Positions 3,287-30,748 of a stretch of DNA of 35,343 nucleotides are shown in pieces (the first letter of the stretch is position 1; every line of letters begins with the position of its first letter). Where the stretch lies: the NCBI GenBank assembly GCA_040904005.1, contig JBBDUH010000041.1, forward strand, positions 1-35,343. Direction: 5' to 3'. The position numbers and the translations under genes are program-made. The stretch comes from Minisyncoccota bacterium. Lineage in GTDB: Bacteria; Patescibacteriota; Minisyncoccia; Phycocordibacterales; SW-6-46-9. The notes beneath the pieces were generated by a model. That model worked only from the letters and a program-made list of their open reading frames with translations. It was not told where the DNA came from and made no database searches.

Positions 3287-3396
3287 TTCTGGTGACTTGG
3301 CGGAGGGGTAACACCTGATCCCATTTCGAACTCAGCAGTTAAGTCCTCCAGCGCCGATGGTAGTCCTCACGGGCAAGAGTAGGTCGTCGCCAGAAT
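3287..3396 (+). rRNA. rrf: 5S rRNA
   Basis: ttctggtgac...gtcgccagaat terminal helix. Conserved cacctgatcccatttcgaactcag, agcgccgatggtag and agagtagg blocks. About 110 nt. Confidence 0.9.
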
Positions 3397-19032: not shown

Positions 19033-20790
19033 ATGATTATCGATACGATAAAAAATTCCCTTAAAGCGGCTCTAGAAGCTCTTGATATTTTCACTGGTGT
19101 TGAAATCCAGTTGGAGCATCCAGCTGATCTCTCTCATGGAGACTATGCTTGTAATGTTGCTATGCAGCTTGCCGGCGAGATAGGCACCAACCCGCGTGAG
19201 TTGGCCAAGAAGATTGTCGCAGAGCTTGAGCAAAATCTACCCGCAGAAATTGCTTCAGTCGAGGTCGCCGGCCCGGGCTTCATCAACTTTCACCTCTCTC
19301 CGGCCTTCTTTGCTCAGAGTCTGCAGGAGATAGTTACGGCGGGTGCCGACTTCGGTCGCAGTGATCGGTTGGGCGGGCAGAAGACAATTTTTGAGTACAC
19401 GACCCAGAATCTTATGAAGGAGTTTCATGTCGGCCACCTGATGAGCCACGTCATTGGCAATGCCATCGCTAATATCTATGATTCTCAGGGCGCTGAGGTC
19501 AGGCGTGATAGCTACCAAGGCGACGTTGGTATGCACATCGCTAAGGTTGTCTGGGCTATCTGGAAGGATAAAGATACTCAAGAGCCGTTTCCTGATACAG
19601 CAGATACCCCGCAAAAAAAGGCAAAGTATCTAGGTATGAAGTATAGCTTTGGGGATAAAATGTATGCTCCTAAAGATGAAGATCTTGCAGGGTTTAGTGA
19701 AGGAAAAGAAAAGAATCAAGAAGAGATAGAGGAAATAAATAAAAAGATATACAAAAAGAGTGATTCGGAAATAAATGAATTTTATGAAAAAGCCTGCGCT
19801 TGGAGCCTCGAGAGTTACCAGTCGCTTTATGATCGCCTCGGCGTCGAGCTCGACTGGCAGTTTTTTGAGTCCGAGACAGCGCCGGTCGGCAAAGCGATTG
19901 TAGAGAAAGGACTTGATAAAGGCGTCTTTGAGGAAAACGAGGGCGCTGTCATCTATCGCGGCGATGAGGAGGAGGGCTTGCACACACGTGTTTTCATCAA
20001 CTCAGCGGATATCCCAACCTATGAGGCCAAGGACCTCGGGCTGATGCAGCTCAAGCACGACGCGTACGCATATGATGAGGCAGTGATATTTACCGCCAAC
20101 GAGCAGAACGAGTACTTCAAGGTCGTGCTGGCCGCAGCCAGGGAGGTTATCCCTGAGCTAGCAGAGAAGACCACTCACATCGGCCACGGTATGCTCCAGC
20201 TCACAGATGGAAAAATGTCCTCCCGCACCGGCAATGTACTGTCTGCCGCTGAACTTTTAAATACAGTAAAGGAAAAGGCTGAGGCAAAAATCAGCGAGCG
20301 CAAAGCTGGGGAAGTAAAGAGTGGCACGGCAGAGCTAATTGCCCAGGCCGCTATTCGTTATGCGATTCTTAAGCAAGACGCTAGCAGAAATGTAATCTTT
20401 AATGTTGAACAGTCGTTATCCTTCGAAGGCGACTCTGGTCCGTATCTGCAGTACACCTTTGCACGTTGTCGGTCGCTCCTGGCTAAGGCTGGCGATGGTG
20501 GTCTAGAGCCGTCAGTGGAGTTGCTAGAAGCTGGAGAAGCCACAGCAGTAGAAAGGCTTCTCTACCGCTTCCCGGCAGTCGCACATCAGGCGGCTGACAA
20601 GTACGCGCCACATCTAGTAGCTACATATCTCCATGAGCTGGCAAAAAGCTTCAACTCCTTTTACGGCAGTACACAGATAATTAGTGATGCCGCCGCTGCG
20701 GGCTACCGCCTTGCCATCACAGAGGCGACGGCCCAGGTGCTCGAAAACGGGCTCAAACTACTTGGTATCAAGGCACCAGAGAAAATGTAG
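19033..20790 (+). CDS. argS: Arginyl-tRNA synthetase
   Basis: N-terminal Arg_tRNA_synt_N-like region, EFHVGHLMSHVIGNAI (HIGH), anticodon-binding C-terminus ending in ...KM. 585 aa. Confidence 0.85.
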   Translation: MIIDTIKNSLKAALEALDIFTGVEIQLEHPADLSHGDYACNVAMQLAGEIGTNPRELAKKIVAELEQNLPAEIASVEVAGPGFINFHLSPAFFAQSLQEIVTAGADFGRSDRLGGQKTIFEYTTQNLMKEFHVGHLMSHVIGNAIANIYDSQGAEVRRDSYQGDVGMHIAKVVWAIWKDKDTQEPFPDTADTPQKKAKYLGMKYSFGDKMYAPKDEDLAGFSEGKEKNQEEIEEINKKIYKKSDSEINEFYEKACAWSLESYQSLYDRLGVELDWQFFESETAPVGKAIVEKGLDKGVFEENEGAVIYRGDEEEGLHTRVFINSADIPTYEAKDLGLMQLKHDAYAYDEAVIFTANEQNEYFKVVLAAAREVIPELAEKTTHIGHGMLQLTDGKMSSRTGNVLSAAELLNTVKEKAEAKISERKAGEVKSGTAELIAQAAIRYAILKQDASRNVIFNVEQSLSFEGDSGPYLQYTFARCRSLLAKAGDGGLEPSVELLEAGEATAVERLLYRFPAVAHQAADKYAPHLVATYLHELAKSFNSFYGSTQIISDAAAAGYRLAITEATAQVLENGLKLLGIKAPEKM

Positions 20791-21279: not shown

Positions 21280-21361
21280 TTTCTATTTTTAGGTTTTTTG
21301 GGTACAGTTCTACCCCTAATAATAGCGGCTTTACCCTCTTTTTGCAAGAGATATAAGCTTT

Positions 21362-21438
21362 GTCAAATAAATGGCCAGACATTCGTCTTGGAAATATCCC
21401 ACTATTCGCAAAATACGAATAGTGGCCATTTATTTGTC
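21362..21438. repeat. Inverted repeat gtcaaataaatggcc / ggccatttatttgtc (14 of 15) enclosing two hairpins
   Basis: Arms at 21362-21376 and 21424-21438. The interior contains agac-attc-gtct and the perfect 10-bp ccactattcg-caaaata-cgaatagtgg. Confidence 0.8.
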
Positions 21439-21685
21439 TATCTGCACTTCGTTCGGATATGGATGCAAGCGACCATATCGCTCACTCCGCTTGATAGTCA
21501 AAGGTTGCGAGACCTCGCCACTAGTTATCTATTTGTCTACCAGCGTTTCGCTCGGACATAAATACAAGTGTTTATGTCGCTCGCTCCACTCGATGAGTAG
21601 ATTTATCAATCTACCTACCTGCACTGCGCTCGAAAATAAATATAAATGCTTATTTTCTCGCTCCGTTTGGTAGTCAACTCATCCG
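21431..21685 (+). repeat. Three tandem degenerate units: conserved flanks around a hairpin whose stem sequence differs in every unit
   Basis: Unit pattern is ..tttgtcta.c.gc..TTCGyTCGG-[stem-loop]-CGCTCrCTCC..t.gaTAGTc. The stems are atatgg/ccatat (21457-21478), acataaa/tttatgt (21556-21577) and gaaaataa/ttattttc (21632-21657). Confidence 0.8.
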
Positions 21686-21705
21686 TTTTTTAACCAAATC
21701 AGAGC

Positions 21706-21736
21706 AAATAAAAAGCCCTTGAAATTATTCAAGGGC
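21706..21736 (-). terminator. Rho-independent terminator of the small minus-strand ORF
   Basis: gcccttgaa-atta-ttcaagggc with tttttattt on the minus strand. Confidence 0.75.
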
Positions 21737-21752
21737 CGGAAAATGTTAGCGG

Positions 21753-21950
21753 TTAGTTAGGTATATGCGGCGCGTCTGCTCGGCTACCGGGTGGTGGTTG
21801 CTGTAGCCGTCTTTGGGCGGCTGAGTTGTTCCACGTCTGCATCTTGTCAACAGCTTTGACGCTGTGGTTAGTTAGTTTGCTGACGTATAGCCGGTGGCAG
21901 TTGCTTTGTCCGTCTGTCTTGGGAACCTTAATGAATGGGTTGTCATCCAT
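21753..21950 (-). CDS. Small hypothetical protein (65 aa)
   Basis: gaggtg SD 3 nt before the ATG, and its own terminator. No recognised motif. Confidence 0.45.
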   Translation of the reverse strand: MDDNPFIKVPKTDGQSNCHRLYVSKLTNHSVKAVDKMQTWNNSAAQRRLQQPPPGSRADAPHIPN

Positions 21951-22063
21951 GTACACCTCGTCTTTTTGTTAAGAAGCCTAGTTCCTTTATATCGTAGCAA
22001 ACCTTTCGTTTTTCAGCAAAATACTCCCGAAGTAGCCCGTAAATATGTTACTCTTGTACATAT

Positions 22064-25000
22064 ATGAGTGACGAAAAACGAGAGAAGTCAGAAGTGGCTA
22101 AGCGCGAGGAGGAGACTTTAGAATTCTGGCGCGAAAACAACATCTTCGAAAAGACGCTTGCCAAAGAAGCGCCACAAGGTGAGTTCGTTTTCTATGACGG
22201 CCCACCATTTGCTACCGGACTGCCGCACTATGGGCACATTCTTCCCGGTACAATCAAGGATGTCATTCCTCGTTTCAAGACTATGCAGGGCTATCACGTA
22301 GAGCGCCAGTGGGGTTGGGATACACATGGATTACCGCTAGAAAATCAGGTGGAGGAGCACCTTAAGCTGGAAACAAAAAAGGATATTTCTGAGTACGGCA
22401 TTGGTAAATTTAACAAGGTAGCGAAGGACTTCGTGCTGCAGTATGCAGAAGACTGGAAACGAATTATTCCTCGCACCGGTCGCTGGGTGGATATGGACAA
22501 CGACTACCGCACCATGGATTCCAGCTACACCGAGAGTATCTGGTGGGCCTTCAGTGAGTTAAATAAAAAGGAGCTTATTTATGAAGGCTTTAAGTCGATG
22601 CATGTTTGTCCGCGCTGTGAGACACCACTATCAAATTTTGAGGTAAATCAAGGCTACGTCGAGCAGAAGGATATCGCTGTGACCGTAAAGCTACCACTGA
22701 CTGATGAGCCGGGCACCAGTCTTTTGGTCTGGACAACTACACCATGGACACTCCCAGGAAACATGGCCGTAGCAGTGAATCCCGAATTAATATACGCAAA
22801 AGTTTCTTCTAAGGATGAGAATTTCATTGTTGCTAAGGAAATGACAGTTGATATTTTTAAGGACAATAATTTCGAAATCATTGCAGAATTTCTGGGCAAG
22901 GAACTCGTGGGTAAGGAGTATCAACCGCCATTTAGCTACTTTCAGGACAAGGATATCGAGAACAAAGAGAATGCCTGGCGGGTGTACGGGGCCGACTTCG
23001 TTACCCTCGAGGAGGGTACTGGTCTGGTCCACATTGCACCCGCCTTTGGCGCCGATGACCTCGCTTTGGCCGAAGAGCACAGTATTCCCATCGTTCATCA
23101 CGTGACCAAAGCGGGAGAATTCACCACTGACGTTAAGGACTTTGCCGGTATGAAGGTCAAGCCGCGTGATGAGGGCAATGAAGAGCATCTGACGGCCGAT
23201 ATTGAGATCCTGAAGCACTTACTTGATAAGGACCTCATGTTTGCTAAGGAAAATATCCATCACCAGTATCCACTTTGCTGGCGCTGCAATACGCCGCTTT
23301 TAAACTACGCCACCACCTCCTGGTTTGTAGAGGTCAGCTCGTTCAAGGACGATCTGGTTGCTGCTAATGATAAGATCGGCTGGGTCCCAAAGGCTATTGG
23401 CTCCAATCGATTCGGTAACTGGCTGGAAGGTGCGCGCGACTGGGCGATTTCTCGCGAGCGCTTCTGGGGTGCACCACTGCCGGTGTGGAAGTCAGAAGAT
23501 GGAGAAGAACTTGAGATAATTAGCTCGCTTGCCGATCTCAAGGAGAAAACCAAAAGCTCCAACACCTTCTTTGCAATGCGGCATGGTGGGGCCGAACATA
23601 ATAAGGCGGGTGTTATTGACAGCTCTGATCCAGAAAAGGTTGGTCTAACACCTGAAGGAGAGAAGGGAGTTAAAGAAAGTACCGGTGATTTAACCGGAGT
23701 TGATCTTATTTTTGCATCCCCATTTCGCCGCTGTCGGGAAACAGCCGCAATTATTGCTAATGAAGTTGGGTTGTCTGAGGACCAGATTATTACTGATGAC
23801 CGGATTCGTGAGTACGACTTTGGTGACTTCGAGGGCAAACCGATTGACGATTACCGCCAGTGGCGCGATGTGCAAGATGATTTTTATACAACTAAAATTC
23901 CCGGTGGTGAGAGCTTTATGGACCTAAAGCGACGCGCTGGTGAGTTTCTTTACGATATCGATGAAAAGTATCAGGATAAAAATATTCTTATCGTATCGCA
24001 CGGCTGGTTTATAGAGGTCTTGCCGGCAATTCTTGAAGGGGCTGATACTAAGAGAGCAGTTGAGCTGTATGAAAAGAGTAAGGTGGACCCGGGCCACATA
24101 GAACCTTTCTCTTTCTCTCTGTTGCCTCATAACGAAGACTTCGAGCTCGACCTTCATCGTCCGTATATTGATGAGATCACCTGGGAAACAAACGGGAAAA
24201 AGCTGCAGCGCATCGACAGTGTCTTCGACTGCTGGTTTGAGTCTGGCTCTATGCCGTACGCGTCTAAGCACTATCCGTTCGCTGATAATGATTTTTCACC
24301 AGATGAAGGCAAGGGCTACCCGGCTAACTTTATCTCCGAAGGCCTCGATCAGACACGGGGCTGGTTTTACTCATCTCTAGTGCTTGGCGTCGGGCTATTT
24401 GGTAAGTCTCCATATGAGAATGTGATTGTGAATGGATTAGTTATGGCAGAGGATGGGCAGAAGATGAGTAAATCAAAGCAAAATTACCCGCCCGTAACCG
24501 ACATTCTTGATAATCAGGGCGCTGATGCGCTACGCTTCTTTTTGGTAAATTCTCCATTAGTACGTGGAGAGAATGTCAGCCTCTCTACTGGTGATGTAGA
24601 TGAGGTGGTTAAGAAGGTAATGCATCGTCTTAGCAACACATACTCATTTATTGCGATGTACAGCACCACAGAAGAGCGTGAGGCTGCACAAAAACAAGAG
24701 ATAGAGGTAGAGAATGTTTTAGATCGCTGGATCATGGTTTGTCTTAACCAACTAATCCAGAATGTTACTGCTGGGCTAGAGAGTTATCAGATCGACAAAG
24801 CCACTAAGCCAATCGTTGATTTCATCGATGATCTCTCCACATGGTATGTCCGTCGCTCTCGTGATCGTATCCGTGGCAAAGAAGGTGCTGATCGTGATCA
24901 GGCCATTAAAATAATCTTACATGTATTGGAGCAGGTATCTAAAGTGTTAGCACCGTTTATGCCATTTCTGGCTGAGAGGTTGTATCAGGATGTAACTCTT

Positions 25001-25582
25001 AAGCAAGAAGAGGAAAGCGTCCACCTAACTGATTGGCCCTCCTTCGCTAAAGCTTCGGAGGACAAGCCGAAGGCGGATGCTTACAAGGACTCTGATACGT
25101 TGCTGGCCGATATGCGCGTGCTGCGTGAAGCTGTCTCGCATGCCCATGATCTGCGCAGTCAGGCCGGCATCAAGGTACGTCAGCCGCTAGCAAAGCTATC
25201 GCTGCGGGATGACCGTCTTAAGGGCAAGGATGAGCTGTTGGAAATCCTCGCTGACGAGGTGAATGTCAAGGAGATTGCTTTTGATACCGCGCTTGTCTCG
25301 CCGGCTGCGCTTGATACCGAGCTCACCGCTGACCTCAAAGAGAAGGGAGTGGTGCGCGAGCTTATTCGCACCGTCCAACGTCTACGCAAAGAGGCCGATC
25401 TTGACCCGACTGAGTCTATTACCCTGGCAGTTGAGACCGACCCAGCTGGTCAGAAGCTTCTGGAAGCTCACACCGACGAGATCGCCGAAACAGCCACTGT
25501 CGCCGAGCTTTCCTTTACTGATGTTACCGACGGTGCTGAAGTCACTGAGCACGATCTCTCATTTACGGTGAAAATACTATAA
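22064..25582 (+). CDS. ileS: Isoleucyl-tRNA synthetase (type 2-like) with an inserted histidine-phosphatase domain
   Basis: PHYGHILPG (HIGH), TTPWTLPGN, WAISRERFWGAPLPVW, DCWFESGSMPY and KMSKSKQN (KMSKS). 1172 aa. Inserted RHG-type domain at about aa 497-690. Confidence 0.9.
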   Translation: MSDEKREKSEVAKREEETLEFWRENNIFEKTLAKEAPQGEFVFYDGPPFATGLPHYGHILPGTIKDVIPRFKTMQGYHVERQWGWDTHGLPLENQVEEHLKLETKKDISEYGIGKFNKVAKDFVLQYAEDWKRIIPRTGRWVDMDNDYRTMDSSYTESIWWAFSELNKKELIYEGFKSMHVCPRCETPLSNFEVNQGYVEQKDIAVTVKLPLTDEPGTSLLVWTTTPWTLPGNMAVAVNPELIYAKVSSKDENFIVAKEMTVDIFKDNNFEIIAEFLGKELVGKEYQPPFSYFQDKDIENKENAWRVYGADFVTLEEGTGLVHIAPAFGADDLALAEEHSIPIVHHVTKAGEFTTDVKDFAGMKVKPRDEGNEEHLTADIEILKHLLDKDLMFAKENIHHQYPLCWRCNTPLLNYATTSWFVEVSSFKDDLVAANDKIGWVPKAIGSNRFGNWLEGARDWAISRERFWGAPLPVWKSEDGEELEIISSLADLKEKTKSSNTFFAMRHGGAEHNKAGVIDSSDPEKVGLTPEGEKGVKESTGDLTGVDLIFASPFRRCRETAAIIANEVGLSEDQIITDDRIREYDFGDFEGKPIDDYRQWRDVQDDFYTTKIPGGESFMDLKRRAGEFLYDIDEKYQDKNILIVSHGWFIEVLPAILEGADTKRAVELYEKSKVDPGHIEPFSFSLLPHNEDFELDLHRPYIDEITWETNGKKLQRIDSVFDCWFESGSMPYASKHYPFADNDFSPDEGKGYPANFISEGLDQTRGWFYSSLVLGVGLFGKSPYENVIVNGLVMAEDGQKMSKSKQNYPPVTDILDNQGADALRFFLVNSPLVRGENVSLSTGDVDEVVKKVMHRLSNTYSFIAMYSTTEEREAAQKQEIEVENVLDRWIMVCLNQLIQNVTAGLESYQIDKATKPIVDFIDDLSTWYVRRSRDRIRGKEGADRDQAIKIILHVLEQVSKVLAPFMPFLAERLYQDVTLKQEEESVHLTDWPSFAKASEDKPKADAYKDSDTLLADMRVLREAVSHAHDLRSQAGIKVRQPLAKLSLRDDRLKGKDELLEILADEVNVKEIAFDTALVSPAALDTELTADLKEKGVVRELIRTVQRLRKEADLDPTESITLAVETDPAGQKLLEAHTDEIAETATVAELSFTDVTDGAEVTEHDLSFTVKIL

Positions 25583-29260: not shown

Positions 29261-30748
29261 ATGACCGACGATACCGATAACAGCACTCAAGAGTATAAAT
29301 ACATCACGACGACACTGCCGTACATAAATGGCCAGCCGCATCTTGGCCACGCCTTTGAGTTTGTGCGCGCCGATGCTGTGGCACGCTTCAAACGTCTTGA
29401 GGGCTTTACGGTCTTCTTTAATACCGGTACCGATGAGCACGGGCAGAAGGTGCTAAAGCAGGCCGAGGAGGAAGGTTTGTCAGTGCAGGAATTTGCCGAC
29501 AAGTACAGTCAGAATTTCAAGGATCTTTTGGCTGATCTTAGTATCTCCAACGATGCCTTTGTTCGCACTACTGATACTGCTCACAAGCAGGCAGCACAGG
29601 CTTTTTGGCAGCGCTGTGATGATAACGGCGATATTTATAAAAAGAAGTACCGAGGCCTTTACTGTGTCGGCTGTGAGCTGTTTGTCAGTGAAAAGGATCT
29701 TAATGAGGAAGGGGAGTGTCCGGATCATCCCGGCCAGGATCCACTTGAGATTGAGGAGGAGAACTACTTTTTTCGCTTCTCCAAGTATCAGGATGAACTT
29801 CTTAAACTCTACGAAGAAAATCCAGATTTTGTCGTTCCTAATGGTCGTTTCAATGAGATCAAGCGTTTTGTTGAGGGTGGGCTAGAGGACTTCTCTATTT
29901 CACGCGTGGCCGAGAAGATGCCTCATGGTGTACCGGTGCCGGGCGATGACAGTCAGGTGATGTACGTCTGGTTTGATGCTTTAAGTAACTATATTTCCAC
30001 CCTTGGCTGGCCAGAAGACGAGGAGAACTTTACCCACTTCTGGGCTGAGGGTGCACCGCTGCAGTTCTGTGGCAAGGACAATATTCGTCAACAGGCAGCA
30101 ATGTGGCAGGCGATGCTTCTGTCTGCTGGGCTACCGCCATCAAACCAGATTGTCATTCATGGTCACATCAAGAGTGATGGACGCAAGATGAGTAAGTCGG
30201 TTGGGAATGTTATTGATCCGCAAGAGATAATCACTGAGTACGGCGCGGACGTTCTGCGCTACTATCTGTTGCGACACCTACATCCGTTTGAGGATCCAGA
30301 TATGACGCTTGAGTCAATCAAGGAAGCCTACAATGCCAATCTTGCTAACGGGCTCGGTAATCTTGTTAGTCGAGTTGTGAATATGTATGTCTCCTATGAT
30401 GTTGAGGTTGCCATCGATCACGAGGCTGATGTGGCGCTTGAGCAGAAGGATGGCGCAGCACTGGTCGAGTTCATTAACTCCTACCGCTTTGATAGAGCCT
30501 TAGACTACATCTGGGCCGAGATTGCCCACCTTGATGTCTTCATCGCCGAGAATGAGCCGTATAAGCTGATTAAGTCAGATGACCCGGCGCAGGTAGAGGA
30601 GGCCAAGCAGGCGGTGGCTTACCTGGTCCTCCGACTTTTTGATATTGCTTCCATGCTCACACCCTTCATGCCCGAGACAGCGGCGGAGATTAAGCGAGTG
30701 ATTGCGGCGAAGGAGAAGCCGGAACCCCTCTTCGAGCGGAAAGAATAA
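29261..30748 (+). CDS. metG: Methionyl-tRNA synthetase
   Basis: PYINGQPHLGHAFEFVRADAVARF (HIGH), a CxxC...CPDH knuckle, and KMSKSVGN. Confidence 0.9.
   Translation: MTDDTDNSTQEYKYITTTLPYINGQPHLGHAFEFVRADAVARFKRLEGFTVFFNTGTDEHGQKVLKQAEEEGLSVQEFADKYSQNFKDLLADLSISNDAFVRTTDTAHKQAAQAFWQRCDDNGDIYKKKYRGLYCVGCELFVSEKDLNEEGECPDHPGQDPLEIEEENYFFRFSKYQDELLKLYEENPDFVVPNGRFNEIKRFVEGGLEDFSISRVAEKMPHGVPVPGDDSQVMYVWFDALSNYISTLGWPEDEENFTHFWAEGAPLQFCGKDNIRQQAAMWQAMLLSAGLPPSNQIVIHGHIKSDGRKMSKSVGNVIDPQEIITEYGADVLRYYLLRHLHPFEDPDMTLESIKEAYNANLANGLGNLVSRVVNMYVSYDVEVAIDHEADVALEQKDGAALVEFINSYRFDRALDYIWAEIAHLDVFIAENEPYKLIKSDDPAQVEEAKQAVAYLVLRLFDIASMLTPFMPETAAEIKRVIAAKEKPEPLFERKE

Follow-up and report, generated by a model that had tools for sequence, protein, structure and literature searches.

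A histidine-phosphatase domain inserted in-frame in a Patescibacteria isoleucyl-tRNA synthetase, and its split and fused relatives

Why would a histidine phosphatase lie within the catalytic body of an isoleucyl-tRNA synthetase (IleRS), and what could it do there? The question is raised by one window, the 35,343 nucleotides of contig JBBDUH010000041.1 (Minisyncoccota bacterium, assembly GCA_040904005.1), in which a preliminary description made from the sequence alone had placed such a domain between conserved blocks of ileS. Few enzymes known are as conserved as the aminoacyl-tRNA synthetases and, to our knowledge, new catalytic domains in their core are rare, the gain of extra domains being mostly discussed for eukaryotes. 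The preliminary description knew of no account of such an architecture and, indeed, our literature search found no paper describing a phosphatase within IleRS. However, it is not rare: such sequences are already abundant in public databases under generic names. The window architecture is one state of a wider association between a phosphatase and IleRS, found in split, fused and multi-site forms.

The host enzyme and the limits of the insert

The window holds a single ileS, whose reading frame is continuous over 1172 codons with both the HIGH and the KMSKS signatures, as first claimed. Neither a T-box nor any other Rfam family was found upstream of it. The parts of the gene are the following.

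22064..25582, + strand: ileS, 1172 aa plus stop, uninterrupted; type-2 (eukaryote-like) IleRS with insert
22064..23551, + strand: IleRS aa 1-496; first Rossmann half, CP core, CP1 editing domain, CP2, CP2-CP3 linker and first half of CP3
22223..22237, + strand: HIGH signature PHYGH, aa 54-58; H55 and G57 invariant, H58 in 119/120 homologues
23552..24148, + strand: His_Phos_1 insert with linkers, aa 497-695; PF00300 match, limits from alignment to insert-less solved IleRS
24149..25579, + strand: IleRS aa 696-1172; second half of CP3 (DLHRPYID...), second Rossmann half, KMSKS, anticodon-binding domain and DUF5915 C-terminal domains
24461..24475, + strand: KMSKS signature, aa 800-804

The protein matches the ileS equivalog model TIGR00392 with 872.1 bits (cut-off 621.4), and the class I signatures and CP1 editing motifs are all found in it, the latter as WTTTPWT (aa 223-229) and GTGLVHIAP (aa 318-326). 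Its best solved relatives are the human, yeast and Candida IleRS and Priestia megaterium IleRS2. E values run from 1e-215 to 1e-189 against the human, Candida, yeast, IleRS2 and Thermus enzymes, versus 6e-95 to 3e-77 against IleRS1 proteins, and the fold comparison agrees, with a TMt of 0.77-0.91 to type-2 IleRS versus 0.70-0.75 to IleRS1. PF19302, the DUF5915-type C-terminal domain, is present, as expected of a type-2 enzyme rather than the zinc-binding domain of IleRS1. The order of the domains (CP1 editing domain, CP2, CP3, DUF5915 C-terminal domains) is that of the solved type-2 IleRS, the mupirocin-resistant type (P. megaterium IleRS2, 8C8U-8C9D, and the yeast, Candida, human cytosolic and Thermus thermophilus enzymes). 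With the domain limits taken from PMC7191050 and PMC7955072, the CP2-CP3 linker falls at aa 457-469. Residues 1-496 align with residues 14-492 of human and 18-498 of Candida IleRS, residues 696-1172 pair with the human enzyme from residue 498 on, and the C-terminal part carries the Pfam matches Anticodon_1 (aa 887-1043) and DUF5915 (aa 1082-1171). The AlphaFold model of the whole protein has a mean pLDDT of 93 and a pTM of 0.87. Our best reading is that the window encodes a working type-2 IleRS.

Between the two aligned parts, PF00300 (His_Phos_1) matches aa 504-664 (E 7.5e-30, 104.5 bits, cut-off 21.7; 109 bits when the insert is searched alone), and the tRNA-synt_1 match is split into two stretches that flank it. 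The alignment to the solved human and Candida albicans chains breaks at aa 495/496 and restarts at aa 693/696, with about five residues opposite, and the insert is thus aa 497-695, or nucleotides 23552-24148; the limits first proposed (23555-24135, aa 498-690) were essentially right. These 199 residues replace about five in the central loop of the CP3 subdomain, 28 residues past the CP2-CP3 linker. In the solved IleRS where it has been measured, CP3 has 62-68 residues, uninterrupted by any such enzyme domain, and in yeast IleRS the CP2-CP3 linker lines the pocket for tRNA A76 and reveromycin (PMC7191050, PMC7955072).

Could the insert be a product of chimeric assembly, of a frameshifted gene pair, or an intein-like element removed from the mature protein? 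The unusual architecture is all that speaks for this, apart from the fact that LAGLIDADG, DUF559 and IS200 elements do enter essential genes of these genomes. Against it, the same in-frame junctions are found in 120/120 best full-length homologues (Paceibacteria), from independent assemblies, with an insert of uniform length (197-206 aa), and the GC content is continuous over the region. Furthermore, the independent assemblies that show the architecture number in the hundreds, with contigs of 0.6-1.6 Mb and one complete genome among them. The junctions, between ...LKEKT and KSSN... and between ...DFEL and DLHRP..., have no terminal His-Asn, and the protein gave no Hint, intein or LAGLIDADG match in Pfam, so that the reported absence of intein signatures holds. 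No remnant of a phosphatase gene was found in the 780-bp region upstream of ileS or elsewhere in the window. An artefact or a mobile element is hardly credible here: misassembly, frameshift and intein are each ruled out by the homologues, the uniform length, the lack of a Hint match and the continuous GC content, and the insert is confirmed as a real, intact in-frame histidine-phosphatase domain within IleRS.

Catalytic residues, fold and family of the domain

All the histidine-phosphatase motifs quoted in the preliminary description are present, and the residues that would carry the reaction map as follows.

23579..23587, + strand: RHG motif (R506, nucleophile H507, G508), aligned with the RHG of PhoE
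23729..23731, + strand: R556, second Arg of the phosphate pocket, invariant in 120/120
23810..23812, + strand: E583, predicted proton donor, invariant in 120/120 and aligned with the Glu of the PhoE 'LRE'
23999..24001, + strand: H646, second His of the phosphate pocket, invariant in 120/120 and in all 332 domain copies

R506 and H507, like the three residues listed after them, are invariant in the 120 best full-length homologues (Paceibacteria), and N513 and E616 are also preserved, which bears out the claim that the catalytic set is kept. The arginine pair proposed in ASPFRRCRETA stands in part: R556 is invariant, but R555 and R558 vary. The residue that follows RHG is Gly in the window protein and Glu in 108 of the 120 homologues. 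Among the 332 domain copies of all architectures, the full set (acid = E or D) is kept in 328; the R and H of RHG are both present except in two (R to K in P0477, a truncated match in L072), and position 583 is mostly Asp, with Glu in a minority, in the group of split and Nealsonbacteria-like proteins. Pairwise identity among the homologues is 40% for the insert versus 59% for the IleRS body. Counted from the nucleophile, R556, H646 and E583 stand at +49, +139 and +76, in agreement with R58, H149 and E82 of a solved histidine phosphatase, the riboflavin-pathway HFP; R58 of the Aquifex HFP is the counterpart of R556 (PMC12051542). On these residues, the insert is probably catalytically competent.

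Structure prediction has the insert folding independently of the rest of the protein, and it enters the catalytic body at the surface. Modelled alone it reaches a pLDDT of 95.8 and a pTM of 0.92, and in the context of the whole protein a pLDDT of 91-98. Foldseek places this model, with probability 1.00, in the alpha/beta fold of the small branch-1 histidine phosphatases PhoE (1H2E/1EBB), CobC (3HJG, 6E4B, 6NRU), the phosphoserine phosphatase PspA (4IJ5) and HFP (9MMH), with a TM of 0.72-0.78 and an rmsd of 2.4-3.1 A for the nearest of them. These closest structural neighbours are all small-molecule phosphatases; they share with the insert the catalytic R-H-G, N, R, E and H and a sequence similarity of E about 1e-10, and are about 200 aa long, as is the insert, versus 230-250 aa for dPGM. 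Unlike them, the insert has no characterised orthologue, and its place is inside an aminoacyl-tRNA synthetase or, as a separate gene, just ahead of one.

None of the named families tried accommodates the domain. Its scores stay below the cut-offs for dPGM (pgm_1 TIGR01258, 15.5 bits versus 81.7; dPGM_arch NF038349, 70.7-74.9 versus 225; GpmB NF002901, 47-52 versus 261), for the alpha-ribazole phosphatase CobC (TIGR03162, 87.3-92 versus 162.9), for PspA (49-54 versus 350) and for the curated SixA model. The PADLOC defence-system models gave no match, and in PHROGs the sole match is a phage histidine-phosphatase family with no assigned function. Automated labels nevertheless call such domains phosphoglycerate mutase (K15634), PhoE or SixA, which could put a spurious glycolytic step into metabolic reconstructions of these organisms.

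Split, fused and multi-site forms

The nearest free-standing relatives of the insert are encoded by genes lying directly upstream of an insert-less ileS, which they overlap (by 4-8 nt) or abut. In split-type IleRS a loop of 8-13 residues stands where the insert would be. In a genome scan seeded with six close free-standing proteins, and whose 80 loci are therefore biased towards their subgroup, 74 GTDB species loci were informative: 50 are split-adjacent, 16 fused and 8 unlinked, the phosphatase being linked to ileS in 89%. The link is thus not obligatory; in the eight unlinked loci no ileS follows the phosphatase gene for 3 kb or more downstream, and its neighbours (Mrr, MGMT-like, DUF5320, MazG) showed no consistent partner. 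The order ArgRS...ileS-RecO-surface protein is common to the window and to the split loci. Gene order is generally conserved in Patescibacteria, however, so that adjacency by itself says little about a joint function. The fused inserts nest among the split phosphatases, the distances of insert and IleRS body are correlated (Spearman 0.47), all copies that are embedded in a larger protein, among the 150 best relatives of the insert, lie within IleRS and in no other synthetase, and not one of 54 adjacent pairs is joined end to end.

The split forms also bear on the idea that the domain is in practice a pseudo-enzyme, which mainly stabilises CP3 after the loss of its zinc knuckle. The knuckle cysteines, present in the CP3 of Thermus and in split-type relatives, are absent from the window protein. 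In the window-like clade both CxxC motifs that would flank the insert are missing from 91 of 109 sequences, and not one sequence retains the pair, whereas the split and Nealsonbacteria-like fused IleRS mostly keep them (both CxxC in 36/65, at least one in 62/65), and the whole-protein model predicts a rigid placement of the domain. However, the Nealsonbacteria-like fused clade has zinc knuckle and insert together, free-standing forms exist, and the catalytic residues stay invariant while the remainder of the insert diverges. We consider such a structural replacement very improbable.

A second lineage, with records named Gracilibacteria and Peregrinibacteria, carries His_Phos_1 at sites A, B and/or C, with up to three copies per protein. 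Two of these loops were located in the window protein by local HMM parsing, with Pfam scans in addition for site B, and both are empty there.

24281..24307, + strand: site B loop, about aa 740-748, between HYPF and YPANFI
24677..24709, + strand: site C loop, about aa 872-882, just before Anticodon_1

Site C is occupied by His_Phos_1 in 60 of the 117 second-lineage clusters, alone in 45 and with other sites in 15. Site B of related IleRS hosts His_Phos_1, GNAT, HAD, P-loop kinase or alpha/beta-hydrolase domains; in one protein (P0443) a HAD phosphatase, which is not homologous, stands there in place of His_Phos_1, and in several (P0444, P0459, P0465) a P-loop kinase (AAA_33 / AAA_18) occurs together with the phosphatase. 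DUF559 endonuclease and IS200-transposase domains are also inserted in these IleRS, at site A or in the editing domain. No conserved operon surrounds the second-lineage ileS in the five loci compared.

Since the loops also host GNAT, kinase and hydrolase domains, they may merely tolerate passengers. The phosphatase could then be a housekeeping enzyme for a sugar phosphate, phosphoserine or a nucleotide, whose gene lay upstream of ileS by chance and was captured into permissive loops, with IleRS providing expression and a scaffold and no mechanistic coupling between the two. The DUF559 and IS200 insertions, the eight unlinked loci, the conservation of local gene order regardless of function and the metabolic phosphatases among the structural neighbours all fit this explanation. 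We hold it possible but on the unlikely side: it does not readily account for the 89% linkage, for internal insertions at three sites in at least two lineages when the trivial end-to-end fusion is never seen, for the confinement of the embedded copies to IleRS, or for the non-homologous HAD phosphatase at the same site.

Three known systems offer comparisons. The CP1 editing domain of IleRS, ValRS and LeuRS is a precedent for a second catalytic domain inside the Rossmann fold of the same enzymes, and synthetases are recognised as preferred hosts of domain insertion (PMC13114784). However, CP1 is an ancient and universal domain whose target is the product of the enzyme itself, whereas the phosphatase is confined to certain lineages, is found free-standing as well, shifts between loops and is not known to be linked to the chemistry of aminoacylation. 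The family NF040702 ('isoleucine--tRNA ligase, N-acetyltransferase domain-containing') is the curators' precedent for an IleRS lineage with an extra enzyme domain. Relatives of the window protein likewise carry a GNAT at site B. The window protein itself has no GNAT match, and it (309.5 bits) and the GNAT-bearing Patescibacteria IleRS (245-321) score far below the cut-off of 1999 and therefore belong to a different lineage. Lastly, in the bifunctional RNase H / acid phosphatase NF005567, whose type we take to be Rv2228c of Mycobacterium tuberculosis, a CobC/PhoE-like phosphatase shares a chain with an enzyme that acts on nucleic acid. Its phosphatase half is matched by the insert with 68-70 bits, far under the family cut-off of 326, and that protein is an end-to-end fusion with another partner enzyme.

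A phosphatase at the aminoacylation site

What, then, would a phosphatase do at IleRS? We favour, with a probability of roughly 0.55, the reading that the domain is an active phosphomonoesterase of the PhoE/CobC-like kind, dedicated to IleRS as its partner throughout Patescibacteria and here hard-wired beside the aminoacylation site. The CP3-borne enzyme, PhoE/CobC/PspA-like, would hydrolyse phosphomonoesters via a phospho-His507 intermediate; the preserved catalytic set suggests that it is active. In many species the phosphatase has a gene of its own, which overlaps the start of ileS or abuts it, and in the window's clade and others it is built into a surface loop of the synthetase. The insertion would fix the phosphatase next to the aminoacylation site, a position that the free protein would also take. 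We infer this hard-wired position from the absence of end-to-end joining despite adjacency, and from the recurrence of the domain at a few loops around the second Rossmann half. One job would be common to the free and fused forms, and that job is probably coupled to IleRS. The preliminary description had suggested a nucleotide, a tRNA end or an inhibitor as the target, and each of the three is conceivable. The substrate that we propose is a guess, made with low confidence: a nucleotide-type phosphomonoester arising at the synthetase, for example AMP or a 2'/3'-phosphorylated nucleotide or tRNA end.

One specific version of such a job is repair, in which the tethered phosphatase would strip a 2'/3'-phosphate or cyclic-phosphate product from a damaged nucleotide or from the acceptor end of tRNA-Ile, so that IleRS, having its own means of healing ends, could charge it. 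The insertion adjoins the linker that lines the A76 pocket, and the weak similarity to the phosphatase half of NF005567 (68 bits) points the same way, as does the use of either His_Phos_1 or a HAD phosphatase at the same site B. The P-loop kinases found alongside the phosphatase recall the pairing of kinase and phosphatase in phage T4 polynucleotide kinase-phosphatase. We nevertheless judge repair improbable. In the window's clade the domain is acidic (median pI 5.5), and the pI values of insert and IleRS body go together; a charge that follows body and proteome lends no support to direct RNA binding. The close structural neighbours all act on small molecules, no defence-system model matched, and a tRNA 3'-phosphorylation specific to Ile is not known to us from any of these bacteria.

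In conclusion, a major bacterial radiation has one synthetase coupled to a phosphatase, and this in hundreds of its species. The interchangeable forms of this coupling (a neighbour gene, three loops, multiple copies and, once, a non-homologous phosphatase) are a natural experiment, which suggests that a phosphatase activity is wanted at IleRS, and the reason for the partnership, of which we found no published description, is a directly testable question. The split type includes a cultured organism, Ca. Microsyncoccus archaeolyticus (PMX.50), as well as the Nealsonbacteria record CP179888.1, and each of the two forms is represented by complete genomes. The insertion loops are also naturally validated permissive sites in a class I synthetase, of use for enzyme engineering. 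A more far-reaching proposal, which we rate as rather unlikely, is that the phosphatase is a third catalytic activity of Patescibacteria IleRS, not a passenger, and works on the enzyme's own substrates, in processing of the tRNA-Ile acceptor end or of a bound nucleotide. It may, for instance, remove a blocking 2'/3'-phosphate or clear AMP, joined in some lineages by a kinase, a GNAT or a hydrolase. If this were true, the synthetase of these organisms would contain a module of its own for repair or for clearing a product.

The host synthetase and its insert

The ileS gene and its insert occupy the following positions in the window.

22064..25582, + strand: ileS, an uninterrupted ORF of 1172 aa (read from the window)
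23552-24148, + strand: inserted histidine-phosphatase domain, aa 497-695 (gap relative to solved IleRS lacking the insert)
23435-23551 and 24149-24220: CP3 flanks of the insert, without zinc-knuckle cysteines (CxxC motif comparison)

The host is a complete IleRS. Indeed, it matches TIGR00392 with 872 bits (cut-off 621) and carries the class I signatures PHYGH (aa 54-58) and KMSKS (aa 800-804) as well as the editing motifs WTTTPWT and GTGLVHIAP. Among solved proteins it comes closest to the eukaryotic cytosolic IleRS, to IleRS2 of Priestia megaterium and to the Thermus enzyme (E 1e-215 to 1e-189), whereas bacterial type-1 IleRS match much more weakly (E 6e-95 or worse). A fold search concurs with this ranking, and the host is therefore a type-2 IleRS. 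The other class I synthetases of the window, ArgRS (19033-20790, 585 aa) and MetRS (29261-30748, 495 aa), have an ordinary domain content; among these enzymes the extra domain is confined to IleRS. The 780-bp non-coding stretch 5′ of ileS (21280-22063) contains three degenerate direct repeats at 21426-21677 (about 50-70 nt, 78-99 nt apart, 69-75% identical, each with an internal hairpin) and, at 21364/21423, a 14-nt inverted repeat without mismatches; neither an Rfam match nor a phosphatase gene remnant was found in it.

Pfam places His_Phos_1 (PF00300) at aa 504-664 (E 7.5e-30, 104.5 bits, cut-off 21.7) and breaks the tRNA-synt_1 match in two around it. Alignments to human and Candida IleRS end at aa 495/496 and restart at 693/696, with about 5 residues passing in the solved chains, which delimits the insert to aa 497-695. 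In Candida numbering the insertion point lies between residues 498 and 503, that is, between the beta-hairpin and the two helices of the CP3 subdomain (473-534) (PMC7191050). CP3 is preceded by the CP2-CP3 linker, ARDWxxSRxRxWG, whose window copy (aa 457-469) lies 28 residues upstream of the insert and which in yeast IleRS helps to form the pocket that takes up tRNA A76 and reveromycin A (PMC7955072). AlphaFold gave confident models of the full-length protein (mean pLDDT 93, pTM 0.87; insert 91-98) and of the insert alone (pLDDT 95.8, pTM 0.92). The structural neighbours of the latter, PspA, CobC, HFP, PhoE and glucosyl-3-phosphoglycerate phosphatase (TM 0.72-0.78), are compact small-molecule phosphatases. 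Its scores fell under the curated model cut-offs for dPGM, CobC, PspA and SixA, and we file it as a histidine phosphatase without assigned specificity, not as a mutase. The preliminary description had claimed such a domain in frame within a continuous ileS that keeps HIGH and KMSKS; this is borne out, and the alignment to type-1 and type-2 IleRS and the structure prediction that it proposed yielded the limits of the insert, the type of its host and a domain that folds confidently in context and alone.

An artefact or an intein is effectively excluded. GC content is unbroken across the insert region, and the Pfam scan of the window IleRS matched no intein or Hint family, in agreement with the earlier claim that intein signatures are absent. 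Moreover, the proposed survey of orthologues found PF00133 and PF00300 together in 120/120 of the best full-length homologues, which are 49-76% identical to the window IleRS and have inserts of 197-206 aa. By record name, often generic, they come from Paceibacterota, Kaiserbacteria, Campbellbacteria and Parcubacteria, several on contigs of 0.6-0.8 Mb.

Its conservation shows that the intact active site of the insert is under selection. Pairwise identity among the 120 homologues is 40% for the insert against 59% for the IleRS body; even so, R506, H507, R556, E583, E616 and H646 never vary, nor do T529, G532, S552 and R624, and the catalytic residues are preserved as had been claimed. The conserved residues align to those of the PhoE catalytic site, with the spacing of R8, H9, R58, E82 and H149 in a solved histidine-family phosphatase, in which His takes the phosphate and Glu is the proton donor (PMC12051542). 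Across all architectures, 328 of 332 domain copies retain the catalytic set (Glu or Asp as the acid). The phosphatase is predicted to be active.

Elsewhere in the window, the 3′-terminal 1557 positions of the 23S rRNA model are spread over 2184 nt (1-2184), about 630 nt of it extra sequence with an ORF (750-1313, 187 aa) whose product has a homing-endonuclease domain of the LAGLIDADG type (E 6e-22). It resembles the intron-type or insertion-type elements reportedly present in rRNA genes of CPR bacteria. The 5S rRNA (3288-3395) follows about 1.1 kb 3′ of the 23S match end; this spacer is unusually long, and neither an ORF of at least 90 aa nor an Rfam match was found in it.

Split and fused forms

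P0103 and P0072 (195-198 aa), the free-standing proteins most closely related to the insert, have their genes directly 5′ of an insert-less ileS (949-953 aa), on the same strand and with gene calls overlapping by 4-8 nt. RecO and DUF11/CLIPPER genes lie 3′ of ileS at these loci as in the window, where no second copy or remnant of the phosphatase was found. When a single genome per GTDB species was scanned, with aligned free-standing proteins as query, relatives turned up at 316 places; the best 80 of these were parsed by means of one profile for the insert and one for each half of IleRS.

Arrangement at the best 80 of 316 places (found via patterns of one free-standing subgroup; not a random sample)
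Phosphatase gene immediately upstream of ileS: 50 loci, with a tandem pair of such genes at 2 of them
Domain inserted at the CP3 site: 16 loci
Phosphatase, no ileS within 3 kb or more downstream: 8 loci
Contig too short to tell: 6 loci

Phosphatase and ileS are kept together in 66 of the 74 informative species from these 80 loci. No end-to-end fusion was found in 54 adjacent pairs: the two proteins never share a reading frame, and the IleRS profile match begins between 24 nt ahead of the phosphatase stop codon and 36 nt beyond it. Nealsonbacteria-named genomes show both states (CP179887.1, a complete genome, is fused and CP179888.1 split), and in the cultured Ca. Microsyncoccus archaeolyticus the two genes are split. 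Two tandem free-standing genes occur in three species, upstream of ileS at loci L032 and L039 and on a contig that ends before any ileS at L060; in P0247, a partial IleRS, His_Phos_1 matches four times, once ahead of the final stretch of CP2 and then as a tandem triplet at the CP3 site. The phosphatase domain thus duplicates locally.

Neighbour-joining trees, distance-based and indicative only, group the window-like inserts in a single clade of 127, nest the Nealsonbacteria-like fused inserts among free-standing phosphatases, and interleave fused and split forms in the IleRS-body tree, with at least 7 parsimony changes. Together with the correlation of insert and body distances (Spearman 0.47), this suggests that phosphatase and IleRS body co-diverged and that split and fused states interconverted more than once. 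The two fused clades share the site and a similar C-terminal linker, F..LP.N...EL then D(L/F)HRPYID. The CxxC motifs around the site, as in Thermus CP3, are mostly kept by split-type and Nealsonbacteria-like IleRS (both in 36/65, at least one in 62/65); in the window-like clade 91/109 have none on either side and no protein has both. The window's clade has thus lost the CP3 zinc-knuckle cysteines (CxxC...CxxC). That the insert serves a purely structural role following this loss is very improbable, as the active site is invariant and one clade retains both zinc knuckle and insert.

Other loops and other domains

An insert-only search returned 889 clusters (50% identity) at E 1e-10 or better; IleRS houses 87 of the best 150, and no other synthetase houses any of them. 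Some IleRS without a CP3 insert carry the phosphatase elsewhere, such as P0315, a search with which led to a second lineage. Its records bear the names Gracilibacteria, Peregrinibacteria and Peribacteria, and many of them lie on contigs of 0.6-1.6 Mb.

His_Phos_1 occupancy in 117 clusters of the P0315 family (A, CP3; B, loop between HYPF and YPADF, window aa about 740-748; C, before the anticodon-binding domain, window aa about 872-882)
C only: 45/117
A only: 39/117
None: 13/117
B + C: 10/117
B only: 5/117
A + C: 3/117
A + B + C: 2/117

Other enzymes occupy these loops in relatives: a serine alpha/beta hydrolase at site B (P0433), P-loop kinases (AAA_33, AAA_18, Zeta_toxin) at site B or C (P0444, P0459, P0465) and, in one protein without His_Phos_1, a HAD-superfamily phosphatase at site B (P0443). 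A GNAT acetyltransferase domain, at site B wherever mapped, is found in many Patescibacteria IleRS, usually alongside the phosphatase (P0383, P0394, P0396, P0423, P0463, P0148, P0307). The NCBI model of IleRS with GNAT (ileS_w_GNAT) describes a different IleRS lineage; the window protein is under its cut-off, as are the GNAT-bearing relatives (245-321 bits against 1999). GNAT toxins acetylating Ile-tRNA are known, so that GNAT-bearing IleRS merit attention.

Domains of the kind found in selfish elements stand in frame, as the genes are called, within the IleRS P0459, P0395, P0408, P0409, P0465 and P0307: DUF559 (Vsr-like endonuclease) lies at site A or within the editing domain, and the editing domain also takes in a Y1 transposase domain of IS200 type. 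At one locus on a 1.3-Mb contig (L086:4001-10374), ileS with a site-C phosphatase precedes four overlapping genes, for a glyoxalase-fold protein, a YbaK-type tRNA_edit deacylase, a second free-standing His_Phos_1 protein and the threonine dehydratase IlvA, which catalyzes the first step of isoleucine synthesis; this set is absent from four other loci of the second lineage.

Proposed role and annotation

The physical or genetic link between the two proteins persists in several interchangeable forms, and the phosphatase is probably a dedicated partner of IleRS. As the split genes overlap or abut, end-to-end fusion should be the easiest event; it was never seen while internal insertions recur, which suggests that position on the synthetase matters. 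The CP3 insertion would fix the docking place of the free phosphatase, beside the mouth of the aminoacylation site.

Could the domain be a mere passenger? The loops are permissive, and selfish elements enter the editing domain and site A of these IleRS as well; moreover, the order of genes is conserved in any case, and at 8 loci the phosphatase is not coupled to ileS. However, phosphatase and ileS are strongly linked, end-to-end fusions are absent, insertion recurs at three sites, a HAD phosphatase can stand in for the domain, and among the best 150 of 889 clusters no synthetase but IleRS hosts it, so that a passenger is less likely than a dedicated partner. A function in tRNA-end or nucleotide repair, suggested by the position of the insert and by the kinase-phosphatase pairs, is distinctly less probable: the charge of the insert merely tracks the proteome, its structural neighbours act on small molecules and no defence-system model matched.

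The fold neighbours and the small cap argue for a small phosphomonoester as the probable substrate. PhoE-type enzymes accept nucleotides such as AMP, and our guess would be a nucleotide-centred role. Such a role would be in keeping with the HAD phosphatase that occasionally takes the place of the domain and with the NMP-kinase-like domain found alongside it.

Phosphatase and synthetase are each members of well-known families, and inserted domains, CP1 among them, are a familiar feature of class I synthetases (PMC13114784). Hundreds of phosphatase-bearing IleRS are already in public databases under generic names, and one JGI label reads 'isoleucyl-tRNA synthetase/phosphohistidine phosphatase SixA/...GNAT'. 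Our literature search, which reached few subscription journals and whose silence is not proof, found no description of a phosphatase in or beside IleRS. We rate the system as a multi-domain synthetase with an unexplained, lineage-wide partner enzyme. Automated annotations name the embedded domain phosphoglycerate mutase (K15634), PhoE or SixA (P0023, P0018, P0383), and metabolic reconstructions of these bacteria may therefore count the IleRS insert as a glycolytic enzyme.
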